This document shows, piece after piece, positions 3,169 to 31,740 of a DNA stretch of 64,000 bases (positions within the stretch are counted from its first letter, which is position 1; every line of letters starts with the position of its first letter). Where the stretch lies: NCBI GenBank assembly GCA_007125955.1, contig SLCF01000051.1, forward strand, positions 10,010-74,009, in the 5' to 3' direction. The notes under the pieces were generated by a model. The model saw nothing but the letters and a program-made list of their open reading frames with translations. It was not told the origin of the DNA and made no database searches. The translations under genes were made by a program, and so were the position numbers. This DNA comes from Bacteroidales bacterium (GTDB taxonomy: Bacteria > Bacteroidota > Bacteroidia > Bacteroidales > PUMT01).

Positions 3169-5295
3169 TTATACATCCTTTATGCTCAACTGTATCCTTT
3201 TGCGTGCAACATCAACTTCAATTACCTTAACAGTTACTGTTTGATTTAGTTTAACCACTTCATTCGGATCACGCACAAACCTGTCTGCCAGCCTTGATAT
3301 ATGAACCAGTCCGTCCTGCTTAACCCCGACATCGACAAAAGCGCCGAAATTGGTAATATTTGTCACTATCCCCGGCAAAACCATACCCTGCTTCAGGTCT
3401 TCTATCGAAAACACATCTTTTGAAAATTCGAACACCTCTATCTTTGTTCTCGGATCCCTGCCAGGCTTTTCAAGTTCCATCATAATATCATTAAGCGTGG
3501 GGAGCCCAATATCACCGGTTACATATTTCTCCATATCAATTTTTTTACGCAACTCAGCGCTTTTGAGCAAATCTCCTACAGTTGCCCCTATATCCGATGC
3601 CATTCGCCCGACTATATGGTAGCTTTCGGGATGAACAGCGGAATTATCAAGTGGCTCGGGTCCGTCTTCTATCCTTAGAAACCCCGCACACTGCTCAAAT
3701 GCCTTTTCTCCAAGTCGAGGCACCTTTTTCAGCTCTCCTCTGGTGGTAAACCGGCCCTTCTCCCTGCGGAAGTCAACTATATTTTGGGCAATATGCGGTC
3801 CAAGTCCTGATACATAAGTAAGTAGATGCTTGCTGGCGGTATTAAGATTCACACCAACAAGGTTGACACAGCTTTCCACTTCCCTGTCGAGGCTTTCCTT
3901 CAGCTTTCCCTGATCAACATCGTGCTGGTACTGGCCTACACCAATAGATTTGGGATCAATCTTAACCAATTCCGCGAGGGGGTCCATAAGCCTGCGGCCG
4001 ATAGAAACTGCACCACGCACAGTAACATCATAGTCCGGGAACTCCTCCCGGGCAGTTTTGGATGCCGAATAAACGGAAGCTCCGCTTTCATTAACCACAA
4101 AAACCTGCACCTTGCGGTCAAATTTAACCTTACGGATGAAATTCTCGGTTTCCCTCCCTGCTGTAGCATTACCAACAGCTATTGCCTCGATCTTGTACAT
4201 TGAGGTAAGGGTTGCAATCTTTTTGACAGCAGCTTTTGTTTCCTCCTGAGGCTTGTGCGGATAAATTGTTTCATTATGCAAAAGATTGCCCTGTGCATCC
4301 AGGCAGACCACCTTGCATCCGGTACGGTAACCAGGGTCTATTGCCATAACATGCTTCCTGCCTAGGGGCGGGGCAAGTAACAATTGCCTCAGATTTGATA
4401 CAAAAACCTTTATCGCTTCTTCATCGGCCTTCTCTTTGGAAAGAGACCTGTATTCGTTTTCAATGGAGGGCTTGAGCAGCCGCCTGTAGGAGTCGCGTAC
4501 AGCAACGGCAACATGATCAGAAGATGAGCCTGTCCCCTTAACAAATAGTTTTTCAAGCTTTTCCAATGCTACTTCTTCAGGCGGCTCAACAGACAACCTG
4601 AGAAAACCTTCCTCTTCACCTCTTCTCATTGCAAGAAGACGGTGCGAGGGAGAACGGTTAAGCTTTTCGGCGAAGTCAAAATAATCAGTGTATTTTGTTC
4701 CTTCCTCCTCTTTTCCCTTTGCGACTCTTGAGAAAATGACTGCCTCCCTTTCAAAGTACCGGCGAATTACACGCCGGGCTTTAACATCTTCACTTATCCA
4801 TTCCGCAATAATATCGCGCGCTCCCTGCAATGCATCTTCAGCAGATTTGACTTCATCGTTCAGAAACTCCCCTGCCCTTTCTTCCGCATTCTCCTTCTGT
4901 TTTAACAGAATCTCAGCCAGCGGTTCAAGTCCTTTACTTTTTGCAATAGAAGCCCTCGTCTTGCGCTTTGGCTTGTAAGGCAGATAAAGATCTTCCAGCT
5001 CCGTAAGTTTTTCTGCTGAATCTATGGCTTTTTTGAGCTCTTCCGTCAATGCCCCCTGCTCTTCTATCGATTTAAGTATCGCCTCTCTTCTTTTGTTAAG
5101 TTCGATAAGCCTGTCCAGTTCCTGTCTGACAGCATCCACTTCAGTTTCGTCAAGATTTCCTGTAAGCTCTTTACGGTAGCGGCTGATAAATGGGATTGTT
5201 GCCCCGTCTTCAAGCAACCTTATGGTGTTTTCAACTCCCTTAAGAGGATATGAGAATTTTTCGGAGATTATCTTTGTGTAAAGTGCTTTTTGCAT
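3169..5295 (-). CDS. tex: Tex-like transcription accessory protein (YqgF/RuvC-like, HhH and C-terminal S1 domains)
   Basis: N-terminal IPFISRYRKELTGNLDE is present. The YqgF-like segment is VMAIDPGYRTGCKVVCLD. The C-terminal S1 domain reads GIVTNITNFGAFVDVGVKQDGLVHIS. Confidence 0.9.
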   Translation of the reverse strand: MQKALYTKIISEKFSYPLKGVENTIRLLEDGATIPFISRYRKELTGNLDETEVDAVRQELDRLIELNKRREAILKSIEEQGALTEELKKAIDSAEKLTELEDLYLPYKPKRKTRASIAKSKGLEPLAEILLKQKENAEERAGEFLNDEVKSAEDALQGARDIIAEWISEDVKARRVIRRYFEREAVIFSRVAKGKEEEGTKYTDYFDFAEKLNRSPSHRLLAMRRGEEEGFLRLSVEPPEEVALEKLEKLFVKGTGSSSDHVAVAVRDSYRRLLKPSIENEYRSLSKEKADEEAIKVFVSNLRQLLLAPPLGRKHVMAIDPGYRTGCKVVCLDAQGNLLHNETIYPHKPQEETKAAVKKIATLTSMYKIEAIAVGNATAGRETENFIRKVKFDRKVQVFVVNESGASVYSASKTAREEFPDYDVTVRGAVSIGRRLMDPLAELVKIDPKSIGVGQYQHDVDQGKLKESLDREVESCVNLVGVNLNTASKHLLTYVSGLGPHIAQNIVDFRREKGRFTTRGELKKVPRLGEKAFEQCAGFLRIEDGPEPLDNSAVHPESYHIVGRMASDIGATVGDLLKSAELRKKIDMEKYVTGDIGLPTLNDIMMELEKPGRDPRTKIEVFEFSKDVFSIEDLKQGMVLPGIVTNITNFGAFVDVGVKQDGLVHISRLADRFVRDPNEVVKLNQTVTVKVIEVDVARKRIQLSIKDV

Positions 5296-8653: not shown

Positions 8654-10159
8654 ATGGTAAAAAAGGTTCTTATTGCCAATCGCGGTGAAATTGCGGTGAG
8701 AATAATCAGGTCGTGCAGGGAGATGGGCATATCCACGGTAGCAGTTTTTTCGGATGCCGACAGAAGATCTCTTCATGTTAGATATGCCGACGAGGCAGTC
8801 CACATTGGCCCTTCACCTTCAGCAGAAAGTTACCTGGTTAAGGAAAAGATCATTGAGGCAGCAAAGATTACCGGTGCAGATGCAATTCACCCCGGTTACG
8901 GCTTTTTGTCGGAAAACGCAGACTTTGCCGAACTTGTCCGCAGTGAAGGGATTATTTTCATAGGTCCTTCTGCCGAAAGTATCAGGCTTATGGGCGATAA
9001 GATCTCGGCAAGGAGCATTATGCTGGATGCCGGTGTGCCGGTAGTTCCGGGATCAAGTGAAAAACTTGCCAATAACCGTTCCGCTGAAGAAATAATTAAA
9101 GAGACCGGTTTGCCCGTAATGATAAAAGCTTCAGCCGGTGGTGGCGGGAAAGGGATGAGACTGGTATATAAAGAGCAGGATATAAAAAGTTCCCTGGAAG
9201 CTGCAAAATCTGAGGCAAAGGATGCTTTCGGCGATGATTCGGTATATATTGAAAAATATATTACCAGTCCGCACCACATAGAATTCCAGGTGCTGGCGGA
9301 CAAGTACGGGAATATTATACACCTCTGCGAAAGGGAATGTTCGGTTCAGCGCCGGCACCAGAAAATTGTGGAAGAGACGCCGTCTCCCCTTATGACAGAC
9401 GGGCTGAGAAAAGAGATGGGCAACAAGGCCATTGAAGCAGCAAGGTCGGTTAACTACGAAGGAGCCGGAACAATAGAGTTCCTGGTTGACGACAAGCTCA
9501 ATTACTACTTTCTTGAAATGAACACACGCCTGCAGGTTGAGCATCCTATAACCGAAAGGGTTACAGGTGTTGATTTGGTAAAGGAGCAGATCAGAATCGC
9601 ATCGGGTGAACCCCTCTCATATAAGCAGGGAGATATTTTCCAGGACGGGCATGCAATTGAATGCAGGGTATATGCGGAAGACCCGGGGAATGATTTCATG
9701 CCCTGCCCCGGGAAGGTGGTAAAAATTACCGAACCTATGGGACTTGGGGTGAGGACAGACGGGTATGTTTACGAAGGTTACGAGGTACCTGTACACTACG
9801 ACCCCATGATATCCAAGGTCATTACATGGGGAAAAACAAGGGAAGAGGCAATAGACCGGATGCTGAGGTCATTGAAGGAGTATAACATTATGGGGATAAA
9901 AACCACAATAGACCTTCTTGAAAGGATTATGGAAATACCCCGGTTCAGGGAAGGAAGATACGACACCCATTTTATTGAAGAACACTATGATGAACTGCTT
10001 GGCCCGCGTGACCATACGGAAAAAACAGGGGACCTGGCAATGATTGTTGCTTATCTGGAATATGCCGGCAAAAGAGACCTGATGAAAAACGGGGAATCAT
10101 TTAACAGCCACTCTAAATGGAAAATTGAAAACAGGAGAAAAAACCTTTCGGGTCAATAA
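8654..10159 (+). CDS. accC: biotin carboxylase subunit of a biotin-dependent acyl-CoA carboxylase
   Basis: Start moved to the ATG at 8654 (MVKKVLIANRGEIAVRIIR). ATP-grasp glycine loop GGGGKGMR is present, with EMNTRLQVEHP downstream. Confidence 0.9.
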   Translation: MVKKVLIANRGEIAVRIIRSCREMGISTVAVFSDADRRSLHVRYADEAVHIGPSPSAESYLVKEKIIEAAKITGADAIHPGYGFLSENADFAELVRSEGIIFIGPSAESIRLMGDKISARSIMLDAGVPVVPGSSEKLANNRSAEEIIKETGLPVMIKASAGGGGKGMRLVYKEQDIKSSLEAAKSEAKDAFGDDSVYIEKYITSPHHIEFQVLADKYGNIIHLCERECSVQRRHQKIVEETPSPLMTDGLRKEMGNKAIEAARSVNYEGAGTIEFLVDDKLNYYFLEMNTRLQVEHPITERVTGVDLVKEQIRIASGEPLSYKQGDIFQDGHAIECRVYAEDPGNDFMPCPGKVVKITEPMGLGVRTDGYVYEGYEVPVHYDPMISKVITWGKTREEAIDRMLRSLKEYNIMGIKTTIDLLERIMEIPRFREGRYDTHFIEEHYDELLGPRDHTEKTGDLAMIVAYLEYAGKRDLMKNGESFNSHSKWKIENRRKNLSGQ

Positions 10160-21951: not shown

Positions 21952-22902
21952 TTATTCAAACAGAACCGCGTCACCTACCTGAACATCATCTCCCCCGTCA
22001 ATGAATATCGCAACAGATGCTGAACTCTGAACACTCACTATCTCGATAGTCCCGATAGGTATCCTTACTTCTTCATCAACTCCTTCGACTTTCATTAGCC
22101 GGGCAATCTGAAGCTGCTGTTTCTCCCTTACCCCGTCGTTTGCGCCTACGTTGATTATCACCCCGTTATCAAGCAGCTGAACAATCTGTCCCATACGAAC
22201 CTCCCGCACAGCAGGCCTGCTCACTTTATCAGCATTTTCACTGACAGCTTTTACAAGATTTGCTCCAAGGTCATCCACTGCCTCATAAGTTGCGCGGCCA
22301 ATAGCGCTTTCCATAAACTCAGCACCCCGAAAACTCACATTCTGCAAACTGGCATCAAATGATGCTCCTGTTGCCGAACCGGTTCCCTGTACAGAACCCA
22401 GTATAACTCCCGATTCTGCATTCACCATCCTGGCTGTAACGCCCACACGGCCCCTTGTGCCACCTACGCCTATTCCCCTTACTCTCACCCTGCCGGTGGA
22501 CTCAAGATTGAATTGCGTTACTGTGCCGAATATAAGCGCATCTGCTCCAAGGAGTCGCCCTATATCAACTGCGCGGGATGGATCAACCACACCAGACCGA
22601 ATAAGATTCTGCTCAGAAAGAATACTATTCAACCGGTCACGTTCCACAAGCTGAAAGTTAACCTGCTGATTAACCATGTAATCGGTCAGCAATGCACTTA
22701 TCTGTTCCCCGACATTTATGCGGGAAAACCTGTAATCACCCCTGTATTCAAGGGGGATAATTGCAATGGTAATAGGTTCTTCTTCTGCAGTAGCTTCTTC
22801 TCCTGCAAAAGCCTGAACCTCCGGAAGCAGAAACAATGAAATAAGAAAACAGCATAAGATTCTGCTCAATAAACGATAATGTGCCATTGTAAAATTCCTC
22901 AT
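21952..22902 (-). CDS. CsgG/HfaB-family periplasmic/OM protein with extra C-terminal beta-rich domain
   Basis: Signal peptide ending ...PEVQAFAG. The CsgG-like core reads IAIIPLEYRG...VERDRLNSILSEQNL...LGADALIFGTVTQF. About 85 extra C-terminal residues follow. Confidence 0.65.
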   Translation of the reverse strand: MRNFTMAHYRLLSRILCCFLISLFLLPEVQAFAGEEATAEEEPITIAIIPLEYRGDYRFSRINVGEQISALLTDYMVNQQVNFQLVERDRLNSILSEQNLIRSGVVDPSRAVDIGRLLGADALIFGTVTQFNLESTGRVRVRGIGVGGTRGRVGVTARMVNAESGVILGSVQGTGSATGASFDASLQNVSFRGAEFMESAIGRATYEAVDDLGANLVKAVSENADKVSRPAVREVRMGQIVQLLDNGVIINVGANDGVREKQQLQIARLMKVEGVDEEVRIPIGTIEIVSVQSSASVAIFIDGGDDVQVGDAVLFE

Positions 22903-25502: not shown

Positions 25503-26762
25503 TCACCAGGGAGAACGGCCGGCCATTTCCTTCCTGATTTCCTTGTACTCTTCCCAGTCAAAACGGTCAAGGAAATCAAATGCCTTTTCAGCCCCGGCAA
25601 TGAAAAGCTCAACCTTCCCGGCTTCAGGCAGTTTAAAATCGAGCCAGTTGAAGTCCCTGTCGGCATCTATATAGCAAATAAGTTTATTGTAGTCAGGGTT
25701 CCTGACAAGGAAATCATAATCGTGAAGTTGACGCATTGTGCCAATCAGGGCTCCTGACATATTGCCCGGACTTTTAATTCTGCTGTAGTCATCTCTCCAC
25801 GTACTCAGTCTGACACCAAAAGTAGGTTTTTTGGGAACACCGTGTTTCAGATGAAATGAATTAATAGGAAAGTTGGAAAGTAAACCGCCGTCGGCAAACT
25901 TAACCTCAGAGGGTATCCTCCCGTAATAACCTGCAAATTTCCTCCACCTGCTCTTTTCCTTTGGAAGTCCCTTCTCTTCAAATTCCCCCGCATTGGGGAT
26001 ATTTTTCACAACCATCGGCTGAAAAAAGAAAGGAACAGACATGGATGCCCTCACAAACCTTGCAGGTTTTACGGTAAGCGGATCCTTCCAGTACAACTCT
26101 GCCATTTCAGGGAAGACCACCTTGGTTTTGGTTGTAATATCAGAGGTTATGATCTTCAGCTCAGCCTTTCTTAATATGGCTTTGTTGTTTTGCGAACGGT
26201 CGAACAGAAGGGGGAGCTGTGACCTCAGTCTTTGCAGGTCTTCCAGAGTATCCACCCCGAAGTCCGACAACTTTAAGCTCACCCACCTTTCAAATTCATC
26301 ACCGGGATTAACCCCCAGATCCCTTCTCAAAACTTTCCAGATCCTGAACGCATTAAGCAGAAGATAAAAATTGAAGCAACGCCTGCCCTCAATATACCGT
26401 ATTATGAGTCTGTTCAGGGCCGGATGGCCGTCAGCAAACACTGAAATATCTTTTTCCGAAATAATCTTAAGAATCCTTTCCGATACCGGGTCTCCCACAG
26501 AGCCGGTTGCAGCCATCAGCATTGCACTTATTGCACCTGCGGATGTGCCTGCCAGACTGAAAAAACGGATTCCGGCCTTCTCCAGAATATAAGCATAACC
26601 CGCAAGTGCTATACCCAAAACCCCTCCTCCTTCCTGCACCAGGTCGACATACTGACAACCGCTGCTGTCAGTTATGTCGGAGTAGACCTTGCTGTCAAGT
26701 CTCTTTTTCTTTATCTCCTTAAGCAGGGCCAGGATCTGATGGTTCTCGGTAAATTGCTTCAT
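25503..26762 (-). CDS. patatin-like phospholipase
   Basis: The first ATG at 26762 is used because the track start at 26780 is TTG. Oxyanion loop QEGGGVLG, nucleophile elbow GTSAG and catalytic Asp FADGGLLSNFP are all present. Confidence 0.85.
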   Translation of the reverse strand: MKQFTENHQILALLKEIKKKRLDSKVYSDITDSSGCQYVDLVQEGGGVLGIALAGYAYILEKAGIRFFSLAGTSAGAISAMLMAATGSVGDPVSERILKIISEKDISVFADGHPALNRLIIRYIEGRRCFNFYLLLNAFRIWKVLRRDLGVNPGDEFERWVSLKLSDFGVDTLEDLQRLRSQLPLLFDRSQNNKAILRKAELKIITSDITTKTKVVFPEMAELYWKDPLTVKPARFVRASMSVPFFFQPMVVKNIPNAGEFEEKGLPKEKSRWRKFAGYYGRIPSEVKFADGGLLSNFPINSFHLKHGVPKKPTFGVRLSTWRDDYSRIKSPGNMSGALIGTMRQLHDYDFLVRNPDYNKLICYIDADRDFNWLDFKLPEAGKVELFIAGAEKAFDFLDRFDWEEYKEIRKEMAGRSPW

Positions 26763-26818
26763 CCGGAAAAAGTATTTCAATCAATTTGCAATAAGCCGCC
26801 GCTAAAATGAGACTATTA

Positions 26819-27409
26819 TCACTCTCCGTTCAAACATTCCAGTCTTGTAAAAACCTCATAGCACACCCATGCATCGGTTGCTGCATAACGCAACTGGGAG
26901 CCGGTAAGCATTTTACTCTCCCAGTTTGATATCTGCTCCTTTTTGGATATATGTATACCAAGTACTATAGCAGCAAGCTTACGCAAACCGTTGCTTTCAA
27001 TTCCAAAATCATTTACATACTCCTGCAGCTCCACAAAACCGGCAGTTTCAAAAGGTCTTATCTGCTGAAGTCCCGCCAGATCGTCCTTGATAGCAACGCC
27101 GGCCTTTATTTTGCCAGGGTCGGAAAGAACATCTGCCAGTTCCGGGGGCAAACCAGTTTTGTTAAGGCGGAAAAGAAAAGCCTTCTCTTTTACCGCAAGT
27201 TGAAGCAGGGATATCTTATTTGTAACACCCTTCCTGAAGGCAGGTTTTGTTTCGGTATCAAATCCGAAAACACTGTACTTCCGGAGCATTCTGACAGCTT
27301 CAGGAACAGACCGGGGATCTTCCACAACTATTATTTCACCCCCGAAACCTGAACGGGGAAGCGATTTTATCTCTTCGGAAGTAATATTTGAAGGAAACCG
27401 GTTATTCAT
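26819..27409 (-). CDS. DEDDy 3'-5' exonuclease domain protein (RNase D / WRN-exonuclease family)
   Basis: ExoI motif FGFDTETKP and ExoIII motif YAATDAW are present. The protein is 196 aa with a single domain. Its ATG overlaps the upstream gene's stop by 8 nt. Confidence 0.8.
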   Translation of the reverse strand: MNNRFPSNITSEEIKSLPRSGFGGEIIVVEDPRSVPEAVRMLRKYSVFGFDTETKPAFRKGVTNKISLLQLAVKEKAFLFRLNKTGLPPELADVLSDPGKIKAGVAIKDDLAGLQQIRPFETAGFVELQEYVNDFGIESNGLRKLAAIVLGIHISKKEQISNWESKMLTGSQLRYAATDAWVCYEVFTRLECLNGE

Positions 27410-28034
27410 CTTTTCCGTACCACATTTTTTTTCGCTGAGAAATTAGCCAGTGATTTGTATCCCTGTTCTCCGGATCATCTTCTTTTGCCCCTTCATCGCT
27501 TTCCTCTTCAAGGCTTTCACCACTGTAGAGCAAAGAGTGTACTGCACGGAGGGAGTTTACAAGTTTTTGCCCCCAGTACTGCTCAAAATGAAGTATACAT
27601 TCCCACATAGAATCGTTCATAAGCTCAACTGTGCCCATCCGGTAAACCATAAGAAAATTCTTCATGTCCTGGTAGATATCAGCCAGGTCTTCTGCAATAC
27701 TGCCCCCCACCTGGTCTTCCGTATCACGGTAAACCGGATCGAAAACCTCGGGGTAGTCATTATGCTTGCCGAGCTTTTTCAGAACCGAATTGTGTACATG
27801 ATTCCAGTCATCTTCAGTTACAAACTTCTGATTTCCTTCCTCATAAAAAGGTTCTGTACGGGGCAGAAGTGTTGCCTTATAATATAAAAGTGGAAGTATC
27901 TTACGCAACTTGTCAATAAAATCGCGTTTTTCAAATCCGCCCGACTGCTCAACAAAAGAGCAGTATTCATTTGCAACTGCCACAAACTCAATTACCGGCC
28001 CGGAGTAGACCAGCTCATTCCTCTCTTTATCCAT
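27402..28034 (-). CDS. conserved hypothetical protein, resembles the Bacteroidota DUF5063 family
   Basis: The ATG at 28034 is used because the track GTG is at 28037. It is an acidic, helical-looking 210-aa protein (IEFVAVANEYCSFVE...). The family assignment is from memory, not a search. Confidence 0.5.
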   Translation of the reverse strand: MDKERNELVYSGPVIEFVAVANEYCSFVEQSGGFEKRDFIDKLRKILPLLYYKATLLPRTEPFYEEGNQKFVTEDDWNHVHNSVLKKLGKHNDYPEVFDPVYRDTEDQVGGSIAEDLADIYQDMKNFLMVYRMGTVELMNDSMWECILHFEQYWGQKLVNSLRAVHSLLYSGESLEEESDEGAKEDDPENRDTNHWLISQRKKMWYGKDE

Positions 28035-28099
28035 CACTTATAATAATTTTAAAACAATGCAAAAATACAAAAACAACACAACATAACATGAACCAGTTA

Positions 28100-30004
28100 T
28101 CACTCCGCCCATCTCACAAGGTTGTCATCACCGCAAAGAAGCTTTTCATTGTCAATAAGCCAGCGTATAACCTTCAGCGTTTTTTCGGGAGGATGGTCGA
28201 GAAGATCTACCAGCTCATCCAGCATAACATTGCCGTGCCTGAGAACCGCCCTGATATTCTCCTCTATCATGTCAAACTCATACCTGCTTAGGTCCTCACC
28301 ATTCCTGCTGTTGCAGTAATCGCAGTTTCCGCAGTTCCCTGCATCATCTTCACCAAAATACGCCAGGAGGAGACGGCTCCTGCACCGGTTTTTTGATGAA
28401 GCATAATCCAGCATATTGTAAAGCCTTTCCTCGTACCTTTTTTTTCTTTCCCTGTAGGAAGATGTCGACAGGTAAAGGGAGTTCTCATCCATTCTTTCTG
28501 TAATGAAAACAATAAGCGGTGTCTTTTTAGCAGGGACATACTGTATGATCTTTTGTGAGGAAAGGCTTGTCAGATACTGATATACTAAATCGCGCGAAAC
28601 TGAAGCCTTGCGTGCAAGAAATTCCTCGTCAATTGCTACAAACCCTGAAAAAACACCTGAACAGGAACGCAGGAGAAGCTTAATAAAAGAGTCGAACTGC
28701 GCATTGGCAACCTGGAAGCGGTAGAGCTCATCCCTCCCGGTAATGAAAAAGATTCTTGACGGATTGTTGACCTCATCTGTAAGCTCTATGTATCCGGCCT
28801 TTTCGAGTGTCTTCAGACATGAGTATGCTGTAAGGGAATGAAACTTGTAAGAAGAAGCAAAATCCACCAGGTTAAAATCGAAAACAGCATCACGTCCCCC
28901 GCCATAAGGAACCCTCAGATAACTGCCAAGGGCGTGGTAAACCCTCTTCACTTCATCCAGACCGGGATAATTTACCCGCATCCTCTGCTGAACACTTTTT
29001 TTATCCGATTCGTTGTAGAGCAATACCGCAAAAGCAGCATTCCCGTCCCTTCCGGCCCTTCCAGCCTCCTGAAAATATGATTCAAGCGAATCGGGCAAGT
29101 CCATATGTACCACAAACCTTACATCAGGTTTGTCTATACCCATGCCGAAAGCATTGGTAGCAACAATAACATCCGTTCTGCCATCACTCCAGTCATTTTG
29201 CTTCTCATTCCGCAAATCCATTTTTATCCCGGCATGGTAGGAATCTGCCGAAACGCCGTTCTTAACTAGAAAAGCGGCAATCTCTCCGGTCTTTTTTCGG
29301 CTCCTGACATAAACAATGCCCGATCCTTTCACCCCCTGTACTACCCTCAGAAGCTGCTTCATCTTGTCTTCGGTATTTCTTACTATGTAACGCAGATTTT
29401 CCCTTTCAAAACTCTTTTTCAAAAGGTTTTTCTTCCTGAAAAGCAGTTTTTCCTGTATATCATCCGCCACTCTGGGAGTTGCGGTGGCAGTAAGAGCCAG
29501 AACAGGCACTTCGGGCAGAAGATCCCTGAGGCGTGATATCTGAAGGTAGGAAGGCCTGAAATCATAACCCCACTGTGAAATGCAGTGCGCCTCATCAACT
29601 GCAATAAGGTTAACAGGCATCTTTACCACCCTGGCGCGGAAAATTTCAGTGCCCAGTCTCTCTGGTGAAACGTAAAGGAACTTGTAATTGCCGTATATGC
29701 AGTTGTCAAGTGATACATCTATCTCAAACCTGCTCATTCCCGAAAAAACAGCAACAGCTTTGATGCCCTTTTTAACAAGGTTTTCAACCTGGTCTTTCAT
29801 AAGGGATATAAGAGGGGTGACCACAACGCATATTCCGTCGGTTGCCAGGGCAGGCACCTGGAAGGTGATCGACTTCCCCCCGCCGGTCGGCATAAGTGCA
29901 AGAGTATCCTTCCCTTCAGCCACAGAACTGATAATCTCGTACTGCAACGGCCTGAAATAATCGAATCCCCAGTAACGCGATAGTATATGACTGAAATTTT
30001 CCAC
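28100..30004 (-). CDS. recQ: RecQ-family ATP-dependent DNA helicase
   Basis: FRPLQ motif, Walker A MPTGGGKS and DEAH box VDEAHCISQWGYDFRP are present. The RecQ Zn-binding cluster is CRSRLLLAYFGEDDAGNCGNCDYC. The start appears to be GTG. Confidence 0.9.
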   Translation of the reverse strand: MENFSHILSRYWGFDYFRPLQYEIISSVAEGKDTLALMPTGGGKSITFQVPALATDGICVVVTPLISLMKDQVENLVKKGIKAVAVFSGMSRFEIDVSLDNCIYGNYKFLYVSPERLGTEIFRARVVKMPVNLIAVDEAHCISQWGYDFRPSYLQISRLRDLLPEVPVLALTATATPRVADDIQEKLLFRKKNLLKKSFERENLRYIVRNTEDKMKQLLRVVQGVKGSGIVYVRSRKKTGEIAAFLVKNGVSADSYHAGIKMDLRNEKQNDWSDGRTDVIVATNAFGMGIDKPDVRFVVHMDLPDSLESYFQEAGRAGRDGNAAFAVLLYNESDKKSVQQRMRVNYPGLDEVKRVYHALGSYLRVPYGGGRDAVFDFNLVDFASSYKFHSLTAYSCLKTLEKAGYIELTDEVNNPSRIFFITGRDELYRFQVANAQFDSFIKLLLRSCSGVFSGFVAIDEEFLARKASVSRDLVYQYLTSLSSQKIIQYVPAKKTPLIVFITERMDENSLYLSTSSYRERKKRYEERLYNMLDYASSKNRCRSRLLLAYFGEDDAGNCGNCDYCNSRNGEDLSRYEFDMIEENIRAVLRHGNVMLDELVDLLDHPPEKTLKVIRWLIDNEKLLCGDDNLVRWAE

Positions 30005-30192: not shown

Positions 30193-30219
30193 TTTGAAGA
30201 GAAATTTTATTTACATTTG
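30193..30219 (+). promoter_or_regulatory. candidate Bacteroidota-type promoter of guaB
   Basis: TTTG at 30193-30196 and TACATTTG at 30212-30219 match the -33 TTTG / -7 TAnnTTTG consensus. They lie ~50 nt upstream of the ATG at 30271. Confidence 0.35.
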
Positions 30220-30270
30220 CATCCACGATATTTATATCCTGAAGTATTAAAATTAATTAAATTTTATCAA

Positions 30271-31740
30271 ATGACATTTGATTCTGAAAAAATAAAAGGC
30301 GAAGGCGTCACTTTTGACGACGTTCTGCTGGTTCCCTCATATTCCGAAGTCCTTCCGAGAAATGTCGATATATCCTCTTACTTTTCGCGGAATATTAAAA
30401 TTAACACCCCGATAGTTTCAGCCGCTATGGATACTGTAACAGAGGCACCTCTGGCAATTGCAATTGCCCGCGCCGGAGGAATCGGTGTTATACACAAAAA
30501 CATGACAAAGGTGGAGCAGGCAAAGCAGATCAAAGTTGTCAAAAGGGCAGAAAGCGGAATGATTTACAACCCGGTCACCATGCTGAAAGACAGCACTGTG
30601 GGTGACGCACTAAAAATAATGAAGGAGTACCAGATAGGGGGAATACCGATTGTTGATGACAACGGTTTCCTCATAGGTATAGTAACCAACCGCGACCTGC
30701 GATTTCAGAATGATATGAAGAGCCCGATCAGGGAGGTAATGACCAGTGAAAACATTGTTACAACATCACAACCCACAGACCTTGATAAAGCAGCTCAGAT
30801 ACTGCAGAAACACAAGATTGAGAAGCTGCCGGTAGTTGACGGGGAAAACAGGCTTGTGGGACTACTCACTCACAGGGATATCACCAAAGCTAAAGACAAC
30901 CCGCTTGCATGCAAGGATGAAAAAGGCCGGCTTAGGGTGGCTGCAGGAATAGGTGTCACTCCCGATGTGTATGACCGTGTTGAACTGCTCATTGAAGCCG
31001 GAACCGATGCCCTCGTTATTGATACCGCCCACGGTCATACAAAAGGAGTATTGGGTCTGCTGAAAGATATTAAGAAACGGTTCAGCAATATTGACATTGT
31101 TGTAGGCAACATAGGTACTGCAGAAGCCGCCAAAGAACTGGAAAGAAACGGAGCTGATGCTGTTAAGGTTGGAATAGGGCCGGGATCGATTTGCACAACA
31201 AGGGTAATTGCCGGTGTAGGTATTCCCCAGTTAACTGCCATTTACGATGTAGCCTCTGCAATAAAAGGAAGCGGGGTACCGGTGATAGCTGATGGCGGAA
31301 TACGCTACTCCGGAGATATAGTAAAAGCTATTGCCGCCGGAGCAGATAGCATAATGGCAGGCTCACTGCTTGCAGGAGTTGAAGAGTCGCCGGGTGAAAC
31401 AATAATATACAGCGGCAGAAAATTCAAAGCCTACCGGGGAATGGGATCGGTAGAAGCCATGCAGCACGGGTCAAAAGACCGCTATTTCCAGGATATGGAA
31501 GACGATATTCAAAAGCTTGTACCTGAAGGAATCTCAGGAAGGATCCCATATAAAGGAACACTTGCTGAGGTTGTCTACCAGCTTTTGGGCGGACTGCGTG
31601 CAGGAATGGGATATTGCGGAGCAGAAAACATTGAGGTTCTCAAAAAATCCAAATTCATCAGAATAACAAATTCGGGGTTAAACGAAAGCCATCCGCATGA
31701 TGTAACAATAACCAGGGAGGCGCCAAATTACAGCAGATAA
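30271..31740 (+). CDS. guaB: IMP dehydrogenase
   Basis: Start moved to [26 protein letters not shown] pair is present, with catalytic loop [11 protein letters not shown]. Confidence 0.95.

Follow-up and report, generated by a model that had tools for sequence, protein, structure and literature searches.

Side by side on the minus strand of a 64,000-nucleotide stretch of contig SLCF01000051.1 from a Bacteroidales bacterium (the whole stretch is called the window below) lie genes for a RecQ-family helicase, a DUF5063 protein, a stand-alone DEDDy 3'-5' exonuclease of the WRN type and a patatin-like phospholipase. In human WRN a RecQ helicase is fused to a DEDDy exonuclease, and the original prediction, made from the letters of this locus, proposed that the first three genes encode a split Werner-like module with DUF5063 as its middle component. 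The question is, thus, which of these genes belong together. The comparison of related loci points to a smaller unit, the bicistron of DUF5063 and the exonuclease, which would have its own promoter, would be translationally coupled and would more probably be RNA-related than RecQ-linked. This explanation is held with about as much belief as doubt. The pair appears to be part of a widespread and uncharacterised Bacteroidales operon, and its reading as a split Werner enzyme is weakly supported.

Conservation of the DUF5063-exonuclease pair

Related loci were collected in two samples of 80 each, one from genomes and one from metagenomes, to which Bacteroides loci and annotated Parabacteroides and Bacteroides records were added. 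The genome loci encode DUF5063 proteins that share 47-82% identity with that of the window; for the metagenome loci, a divergent DUF5063 cluster served as seed. Each sample comprised the best 80 loci and is hence biased, and many of the human-gut metagenome loci were near-duplicates. For these reasons, counts are also given per distinct locus and per lineage, the lineages being single-linkage clusters of DUF5063 at 70% identity.

The exonuclease gene was located directly 3' of DUF5063 on the same strand in 83/83 loci. When counted with profile hidden Markov models (HMM), it directly followed DUF5063 in 79/79 genome, 65/66 metagenome and 3/3 Bacteroides loci, and the adjacency was found in 16 of the 20 lineages. 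The two genes were never split, even where opposite-strand genes separated recQ from DUF5063, and they remained adjacent in several Bacteroidales families with wholly different flanking genes. The DUF5063 stop overlapped the exonuclease start by 1-26 nt in 89 of 127 distinct loci (70%); the gap was 0-30 nt in 33 and longer than 30 nt in five. An overlap or a gap of at most 30 nt was, thus, present in 122/127 distinct loci, which makes translational coupling a likely property of the whole family and not of the window alone. The 8-nt overlap from which coupling had been proposed for the window is real and belongs to the commonest arrangement, indicating that DUF5063 and the exonuclease are probably translationally coupled.

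A conserved promoter-like box upstream of DUF5063

Of 135 distinct loci, 117 (87%) carry a TAnnTTTG box, the Bacteroidota -7 element of sigma-A-type promoters, in the 70 nt before the DUF5063 start, with the mode of its position at -30. Control windows contained it in 2/135 and 1/128 cases, and by chance about 0.02 matches would be expected on one strand of the 62-nt spacer of the window. The frequency of the box was alike in loci with RecQ adjacent (24/28) and in the remaining ones (93/107). Over the whole window the motif was not enriched (40 matches versus 54 expected), and an isolated match is, therefore, of little weight unless its position is conserved. Its conserved position upstream of DUF5063 suggests, as far as a motif can, that the DUF5063-exonuclease(-methyltransferase) unit carries its own promoter signal. 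The scan of the window confirmed that the box is missing from the last two of the four-gene junctions. In the junctions, a search for sigma-70 promoters and terminators yielded no more than is expected of shuffled sequence, and no terminator was found after recQ. The Bacteroidetes LexA box (CTAA-N5-TTAG) was not present near recQ or DUF5063; four matches with one mismatch occurred in the window, all of them elsewhere.

RecQ as an occasional neighbour

RecQ was located directly upstream of DUF5063 in 22/69 genome and 8/55 metagenome loci, about a quarter, representing 6 of the 20 lineages, and within 7 kb in 27/50 genome loci. No Bacteroides or Parabacteroides locus had it next to DUF5063, and it was missing from the locus in most Rikenellaceae-like metagenome-assembled genomes (MAGs). 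The PG0364-66 unit of Porphyromonas gingivalis is listed without RecQ (PMC10434189). Opposite-strand genes often sat between recQ and DUF5063, and in nine loci the recQ-guaB block was inverted downstream of the methyltransferase gene that usually follows the exonuclease. A conserved three-gene unit of RecQ, DUF5063 and exonuclease, as originally envisaged, was not recovered: the synteny upheld the link between DUF5063 and the exonuclease and showed no general linkage to RecQ. A lack of conserved linkage and independent promoters with uncorrelated expression had been named as speaking against such a unit; the missing linkage and an independent promoter were largely borne out, the latter by the conserved box between RecQ and DUF5063 as a motif match. 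Nor was a WRN-type bifunctional RecQ-exonuclease recognised here, as the genes are separate and not obligatorily linked, with a promoter box between them.

Where present in the locus, RecQ almost always paired divergently with guaB, the gene of IMP dehydrogenase. Judged by this synteny, RecQ is really anchored to guaB and is only an occasional neighbour of DUF5063. A non-canonical RecQ beside guaB was retained in many Bacteroidales MAGs. In the window, another TAnnTTTG box (30212-30219, plus strand) coincides with the TTG given as the start of guaB, and translation of this gene probably begins at an ATG further downstream.

The helicase of the window belongs to the RecQ family (TIGR00614, 407.8 bits against a cut-off of 219.8) and scored below the cut-offs for the canonical bacterial RecQ equivalogs (TIGR01389, 482 versus 640 bits; PRK11057, 386 versus 1015). 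Neither an RQC nor an HRDC domain was matched, even at E <= 5 with the C-terminal 302 amino acids (aa). Within residues ~346-634, a stretch of about 160 aa that weakly resembles winged-helix domains (matches to TrmB, PadR and IclR helix-turn-helix) precedes the C-terminal part of the Zn-binding module at residues 509-565.

Genes downstream of the pair

Throughout Bacteroidales, the pair normally constitutes the first two genes of a DUF5063-exonuclease-RlmI-like rRNA 5-methylcytosine (m5C) methyltransferase unit, often followed by tex. The methyltransferase gene followed the exonuclease gene in 67/77 genome and 47/52 metagenome loci and in 12 of 16 lineages, with a median spacer of 26 nt and a promoter box in 2 of 108 spacers. 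The three genes overlap or abut in P. distasonis, and the trio occurs without RecQ in B. caccae, B. fragilis and B. finegoldii. A transcriptome table (PMC10434189) gives the same trio of P. gingivalis, PG0364-66, as a single unit. The S1 RNA-binding protein Tex was encoded directly after the methyltransferase in most related loci, and a DEAD-box helicase gene took this place in four loci (L089, L092, L094 and L096). The L094 protein (8752-10038) is a 428-aa DEAD-box helicase (Pfam DEAD, 4e-49) that was at first a weak 'RecQ' match, and L034 probably has a DEAD-box helicase in the same place, as indicated by a weak helicase match.

The window departs from this arrangement. No RlmI-like methyltransferase gene was found in its whole 64 kb and tex lies about 21 kb from the exonuclease gene, so the region downstream of the exonuclease has been rearranged in this lineage. 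Patatin occupies the slot usual for the methyltransferase in the window and in L002, a close relative with a locus that continues beyond the exonuclease; L002 is the only related locus in which it recurs. The protein is a clear member of its family (PF01734, 75.8 bits versus a cut-off of 27.7) with visible GGGVLG, GTSAG and DGG motifs. Its description as a passenger holds and, judging from this distribution, patatin fills the methyltransferase slot as a peculiarity of this lineage.

Another recurrent neighbour is YaaA, a peroxide stress protein (PF03883). In one clade its gene immediately precedes DUF5063 in the same orientation, and in a second one it stands behind the methyltransferase gene in convergent orientation; YaaA was seen in L006 (9558-10322, minus strand) and, upstream of DUF5063, in L014, L016, L023, L035, L036, L044 and L064.

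Features of the exonuclease and DUF5063 proteins

The exonuclease matched PF01612 with 89.8 bits (cut-off 23.6) over residues 28-191. All DEDDy residues are present, D51/E53 (DTE), IKDD at 107-110 and Y175/D179 (YAATD), and the motifs align with the DME, GD and YAATD motifs of WRN. The best match in the PDB was the human WRN exonuclease domain (2FBT, E = 1.4e-15), followed by NrnC (Inquilinus NrnC, E = 8e-11), Pol I exo, Mut-7, EXD2 and diDNase. The protein, which lacks HRDC, does not qualify as an RNase D equivalog (TIGR01388, 30.1 bits versus a cut-off of 299), and its relation to NrnC-type dinucleases consists of the sequence similarity to the Inquilinus enzyme.

The DUF5063 protein is acidic, as predicted, with an isoelectric point of 4.7, and its membership of PF16702 is clear (173.4 bits, cut-off 27, E = 6.6e-51). 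The structure of BF1032 (3NRH) was matched by sequence (E = 5.8e-41) and by an AlphaFold model, with a template modelling score (TM-score) of 0.92 normalised to the target for chain residues 2-173; the match stops at chain residue 173, so the comparison does not extend to the tail. In the model (predicted local distance difference test, pLDDT, of 80), a bundle of seven core helices is followed by an acidic linker, which is disordered, and by a short low-confidence helix at the C-terminus. A Foldseek search of the PDB with this model returned 3NRH alone, all other entries having E > 0.1 and a TM-score below 0.3, and a profile search of PDB sequences gave nothing beyond 3NRH. DUF5063 was also considered as a stand-in for the HRDC domains of RNase D or WRN; this was rejected, as the protein was not HRDC-like in the fold search.

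At 50% identity the DUF5063 family comprises 2,439 representatives, of which 290 reach E <= 1e-30. No Rosetta-stone fusion was seen in the best 150 of the 2,439, as even the longest of these 150 (308 aa) is too short to include an exonuclease. The invariant residues, E17, E24, E30, Y52, K54, E75, D120, Y122, Q123, D124, W155, G156, Q157, N161 and H167, are mainly acidic or polar and are placed on the core helices. The tails vary by clade. After its acidic linker the window protein ends in DTNHWLISQRKK, and its group has DTxxW[FI]I[ST]xRQK in 101/120 clusters. In Bacteroides, an acidic linker is followed by three to six tandem CHCH(D/E)x repeats at the C-terminus (104/118 clusters; L081, 8001-8666, is an example), and this Cys/His-rich tail looks metal-binding. 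Further groups have a short acidic tail or no tail. The tail motif occurred in 25 of 30 RecQ-adjacent loci versus 54 of 100 others, a comparison confounded by phylogeny, and bore no clean relationship to RecQ adjacency.

A literature search found no functional study of the DUF5063-exonuclease pair, DUF5063 being encountered in a single paper and there only in a table. PG0366 was listed among Bacteroidales signature proteins in an earlier comparative study (PMC1887533).

Organization of the locus in the window

The features of the window are collected in Table 1. All four genes are on the minus strand and Pfam agreed with the identity assigned earlier to each of them, including the helicase core and Zn-binding module of RecQ and the stand-alone DEDDy exonuclease. 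The gaps of 65, -8 and 56 nt noted before were reproduced when DUF5063 was taken to start at the ATG at 28034 and patatin at the ATG at 26762; with the GTG and TTG starts further upstream, the spacers are 62 and 38 nt instead of 65 and 56 nt.

Table 1. Positions of the four-gene locus, its junction elements and associated genes in the 64,000-nt window
Feature	Position	Strand	Description
RecQ-family helicase gene	28100..30004	minus	634 aa; Pfam DEAD, Helicase_C, RecQ_Zn_bind; divergent from guaB
DUF5063 gene	27402..28037	minus	211 aa; probable start ATG at 28034; Pfam PF16702
Stand-alone DEDDy 3'-5' exonuclease gene	26819..27409	minus	196 aa; Pfam PF01612; WRN / RNase D / NrnC superfamily
Patatin-like phospholipase gene	25503..26780	minus	425 aa; probable start ATG at 26762; Pfam PF01734
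DUF5063 stop / exonuclease start overlap	27402..27409	minus	8 nt, ATGAATAA
TAnnTTTG-type -7 box TATTTTTG	28060..28067	minus	in the RecQ-DUF5063 spacer; begins 33 nt before the DUF5063 ATG
guaB (IMP dehydrogenase)	30217..31740	plus	conserved divergent partner of RecQ
Tex (S1 RNA-binding transcription accessory protein)	3172..5271	minus	~21 kb from the exonuclease gene

No Rfam family was found between positions 22000 and 34000 of the window. The PADLOC scan of the four genes revealed no defence system: only RecQ matched RecQ-like DpdF models, a generic similarity, the exonuclease had one weak match, DUF5063 and patatin had none, and no further Dpd-like match occurred among the four genes. In PHROG, neither DUF5063 nor the exonuclease was matched.

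DUF5063 in other genomic contexts

Besides the loci with an exonuclease, DUF5063 was encountered in several other surroundings. In L084 (8001-11095), L085 (8001-11184) and L086 (4946-8211), a tailless DUF5063 of about 180 aa is encoded directly upstream of a fused feoAB gene for an iron transporter, with no exonuclease and with a TAnnTTTG box upstream of DUF5063 in all three. L122 (3929-5297) encodes a DUF5063 with a DTSNWLINQ tail, whose stop is overlapped by 11 nt by an ABC-transporter ATPase gene; it is the sole metagenome locus with at least 500 nt downstream in which the exonuclease does not follow DUF5063.

The remaining contexts concern mobile elements. On a Hymenobacter yonginensis plasmid (NZ_CP115397; L167, 2553-7748), an RHS-repeat fragment is followed by DUF6896, barstar, DUF5063 and two hypothetical genes; an SMI1/KNR4 (SUKH-1) gene is located close by, and this array resembles a polymorphic-toxin immunity-gene cluster. 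In an Anaerosphaera phage (PV036460; L170, 353-3110), DUF5063 stands immediately after a GmrSD-type restriction nuclease gene, and in an IMG/VR contig (L172, 3894-5438) it stands two genes downstream of an HNH endonuclease, with DUF6994 and the small terminase coming next. The homologues of L170 and L172 have about 148 aa. A distant DUF5063 precedes two phosphoesterase genes on a Planococcus plasmid.

Proposed function and alternative explanations

To judge from synteny, the older local order would have been guaB diverging from recQ, with recQ followed by DUF5063, exonuclease, methyltransferase and tex. RecQ would be a neighbour in the window only by retention, other lineages having lost this order through insertion, inversion or relocation, and patatin would have taken the methyltransferase position in the small lineage of the window. 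DUF5063 and the exonuclease would be produced in a fixed ratio and act together. As an acidic non-catalytic helical partner, DUF5063 would bind the exonuclease and control its activity or its access to substrate, up or down. The pair would trim or survey RNA 3' ends in rRNA/tRNA maturation or quality control, more probably than take part in DNA work with RecQ. This preference for RNA 3' ends is a case of guilt by association, held with only moderate confidence: beyond the pair itself, linkage is tightest to the rRNA methyltransferase gene and to tex, and in some loci to a DEAD-box helicase gene.

A wider version of this explanation is tentative and considered rather doubtful. It sees in DUF5063 a new family of dedicated nuclease partners that dock onto a nuclease and switch it, obligate for the exonuclease in Bacteroidales. 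The tails would then be swappable regulatory or targeting modules, realised as a basic DTxxW...RQK helix, as CHCH metal-binding repeats or not at all, and in some lineages, including that of the window, the exonuclease may have kept a cooperation with the non-canonical RecQ encoded beside it.

Several points weigh against the preferred explanation, that of a coupled pair with an RNA-related role. The RNA role is drawn solely from the neighbouring methyltransferase, Tex and DEAD-box helicase genes, and the clade of the window itself keeps the methyltransferase linkage in only about half of its loci. The nearest solved homologue of the exonuclease, WRN-exo, is a DNA enzyme. The promoter is a motif match, the joint action of the pair is deduced from position, and no terminator was found after recQ, so read-through from recQ is possible. 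All loci were gathered via DUF5063 and the exonuclease linkage was, thus, counted from the DUF5063 side alone. Some DUF5063 subfamilies are without the exonuclease (those beside feoAB in L084-L086 and the ABC ATPase in L122), and DUF5063 is, therefore, not exclusively an exonuclease partner. Finally, the order RecQ-DUF5063-exonuclease is kept in 11/13 loci of the clade of the window (L001-L013, MAGs from soda-lake sediment), so a functional link to RecQ is possible there.

Retention in this clade is among the observations that favour one DNA-repair complex of RecQ, DUF5063 and exonuclease, with DUF5063 bridging helicase and nuclease. Its other support comes from the WRN exonuclease domain as the best PDB match, the position of RecQ directly upstream in the window and in 6/20 lineages or within 7 kb in 27/50 genome loci, and the lack of a detected terminator between recQ and DUF5063. 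Stand-alone WRN-like exonucleases, present in Arabidopsis (WEX) and Drosophila, are moreover an example of such enzymes working with separate RecQ helicases in plants and flies. Such a complex is nevertheless quite unlikely. RecQ is absent from the locus in Bacteroides, Parabacteroides and most Rikenellaceae-like MAGs, and the listing of the P. gingivalis unit does not include it; many loci have opposite-strand insertions or an inverted recQ-guaB block, while DUF5063 and the exonuclease are never split. A conserved promoter box separates RecQ from DUF5063, the DUF5063 tail motif does not track RecQ adjacency in the phylogeny-confounded comparison given above, and HRDC and RQC domains were undetected in this RecQ. 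As the entire evidence is positional, all these genes might even be neighbours by descent with no shared function. This is highly improbable, since the adjacency of DUF5063 and exonuclease outlasts a complete change of flanks across several Bacteroidales families, their codons overlap in 70% of distinct loci, and the unit has one promoter box upstream and almost none inside.

Two further explanations concern what DUF5063 does to its partner. An immunity-like DUF5063 that holds a harmful exonuclease inactive until release, comparable to barstar/barnase and antitoxin-toxin operons, would fit the architecture of a small acidic upstream protein overlapping a nuclease gene, as well as the distant DUF5063 beside barstar and near SMI1/KNR4 (SUKH) in the Rhs-associated array of the Hymenobacter plasmid, the one directly after the GmrSD-type nuclease of the Anaerosphaera phage and the one two genes after the HNH nuclease of the viral contig. 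Each of these mobile-element contexts is, however, a single locus, and the Bacteroidales pair is chromosomal, vertically inherited and part of a housekeeping-type operon with an rRNA methyltransferase, not located on islands. DUF5063 had no PADLOC or PHROG match and its feoAB-linked subfamily has no nuclease, which makes this function unlikely. That DUF5063 handles metal, binding a divalent ion that it delivers to, or senses for, the two-metal-ion exonuclease, and that it acts next to FeoAB in a sister subfamily, is very unlikely, even though the CHCH(D/E) tails (three to six copies, 104/118 Bacteroides clusters), the subfamily directly upstream of feoAB in three genomes and the many invariant core residues of often metal-binding types (E17, E24, E30, E75, D120, D124, H167, Y52 and Y122) agree with it. 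The Cys/His tails are missing from the window protein and from most clades, and there was neither a known metal-site motif nor a structural match to ferritin-like or other metalloprotein folds. One of the three DUF5063-feoAB spacers contains a promoter box of its own, and the iron-dependent change of PG0364-66 was just 1.4-1.5-fold in a P. gingivalis study (PMC10434189).

The focus, thus, moves from the attractive and weakly supported analogy with a split Werner enzyme to a testable, coupled DUF5063-exonuclease pair, which is present in the dominant gut Bacteroides and Parabacteroides and in the oral pathogen P. gingivalis. With a crystal structure of the partner at hand (3NRH) and genetic systems for B. 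thetaiotaomicron and P. gingivalis, deciding its role is feasible. The decision between an RNA-maturation enzyme, a regulated nuclease and a RecQ cofactor would assign a function to about 2,400 clusters at 50% identity.

Comparison with known systems

Human WRN resembles the exonuclease of the window in its exonuclease domain family, the five DEDDy residues and the rank of best PDB match, and the window encodes a RecQ-family helicase next door. The two systems differ in that WRN is a fusion, whereas the window genes are separate, with a promoter box between them, a linkage that is not conserved and a RecQ without detectable HRDC and RQC. To our knowledge, no DUF5063 partner of WRN has been described. 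A literature search on RecQ operons in Bacteroides and on bacterial WRN homologues returned nothing relevant.

With E. coli RNase D, the exonuclease shares the DEDDy catalytic domain and possibly the trimming of stable RNA 3' ends, but it has no HRDC domains and scores 30 instead of 299 bits with TIGR01388, and DUF5063 is not HRDC-like. The NrnC and diDNase enzymes are, like the window protein, single-domain DEDDy proteins of about 200 aa, and Inquilinus NrnC was matched with E = 8e-11; the window exonuclease is nevertheless less similar to them than to WRN-exo. In the parts of the NrnC/diDNase literature that were accessible to the search, no mention of Bacteroidota was found.

BF1032 (3NRH) has the family and fold of the DUF5063 protein (E = 5.8e-41, TM-score 0.92, residues 2-173), and the two proteins differ in their tails, which consist of the CHCH repeat in Bacteroides and of DTxxW...RQK in the window. 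The closest counterparts of the whole locus are those of Bacteroides, Parabacteroides and P. gingivalis. They have the same DUF5063-exonuclease pair in the same order, closely spaced or overlapping, and continue with the methyltransferase without RecQ, whereas in the window RecQ is located upstream and patatin occupies the methyltransferase slot.

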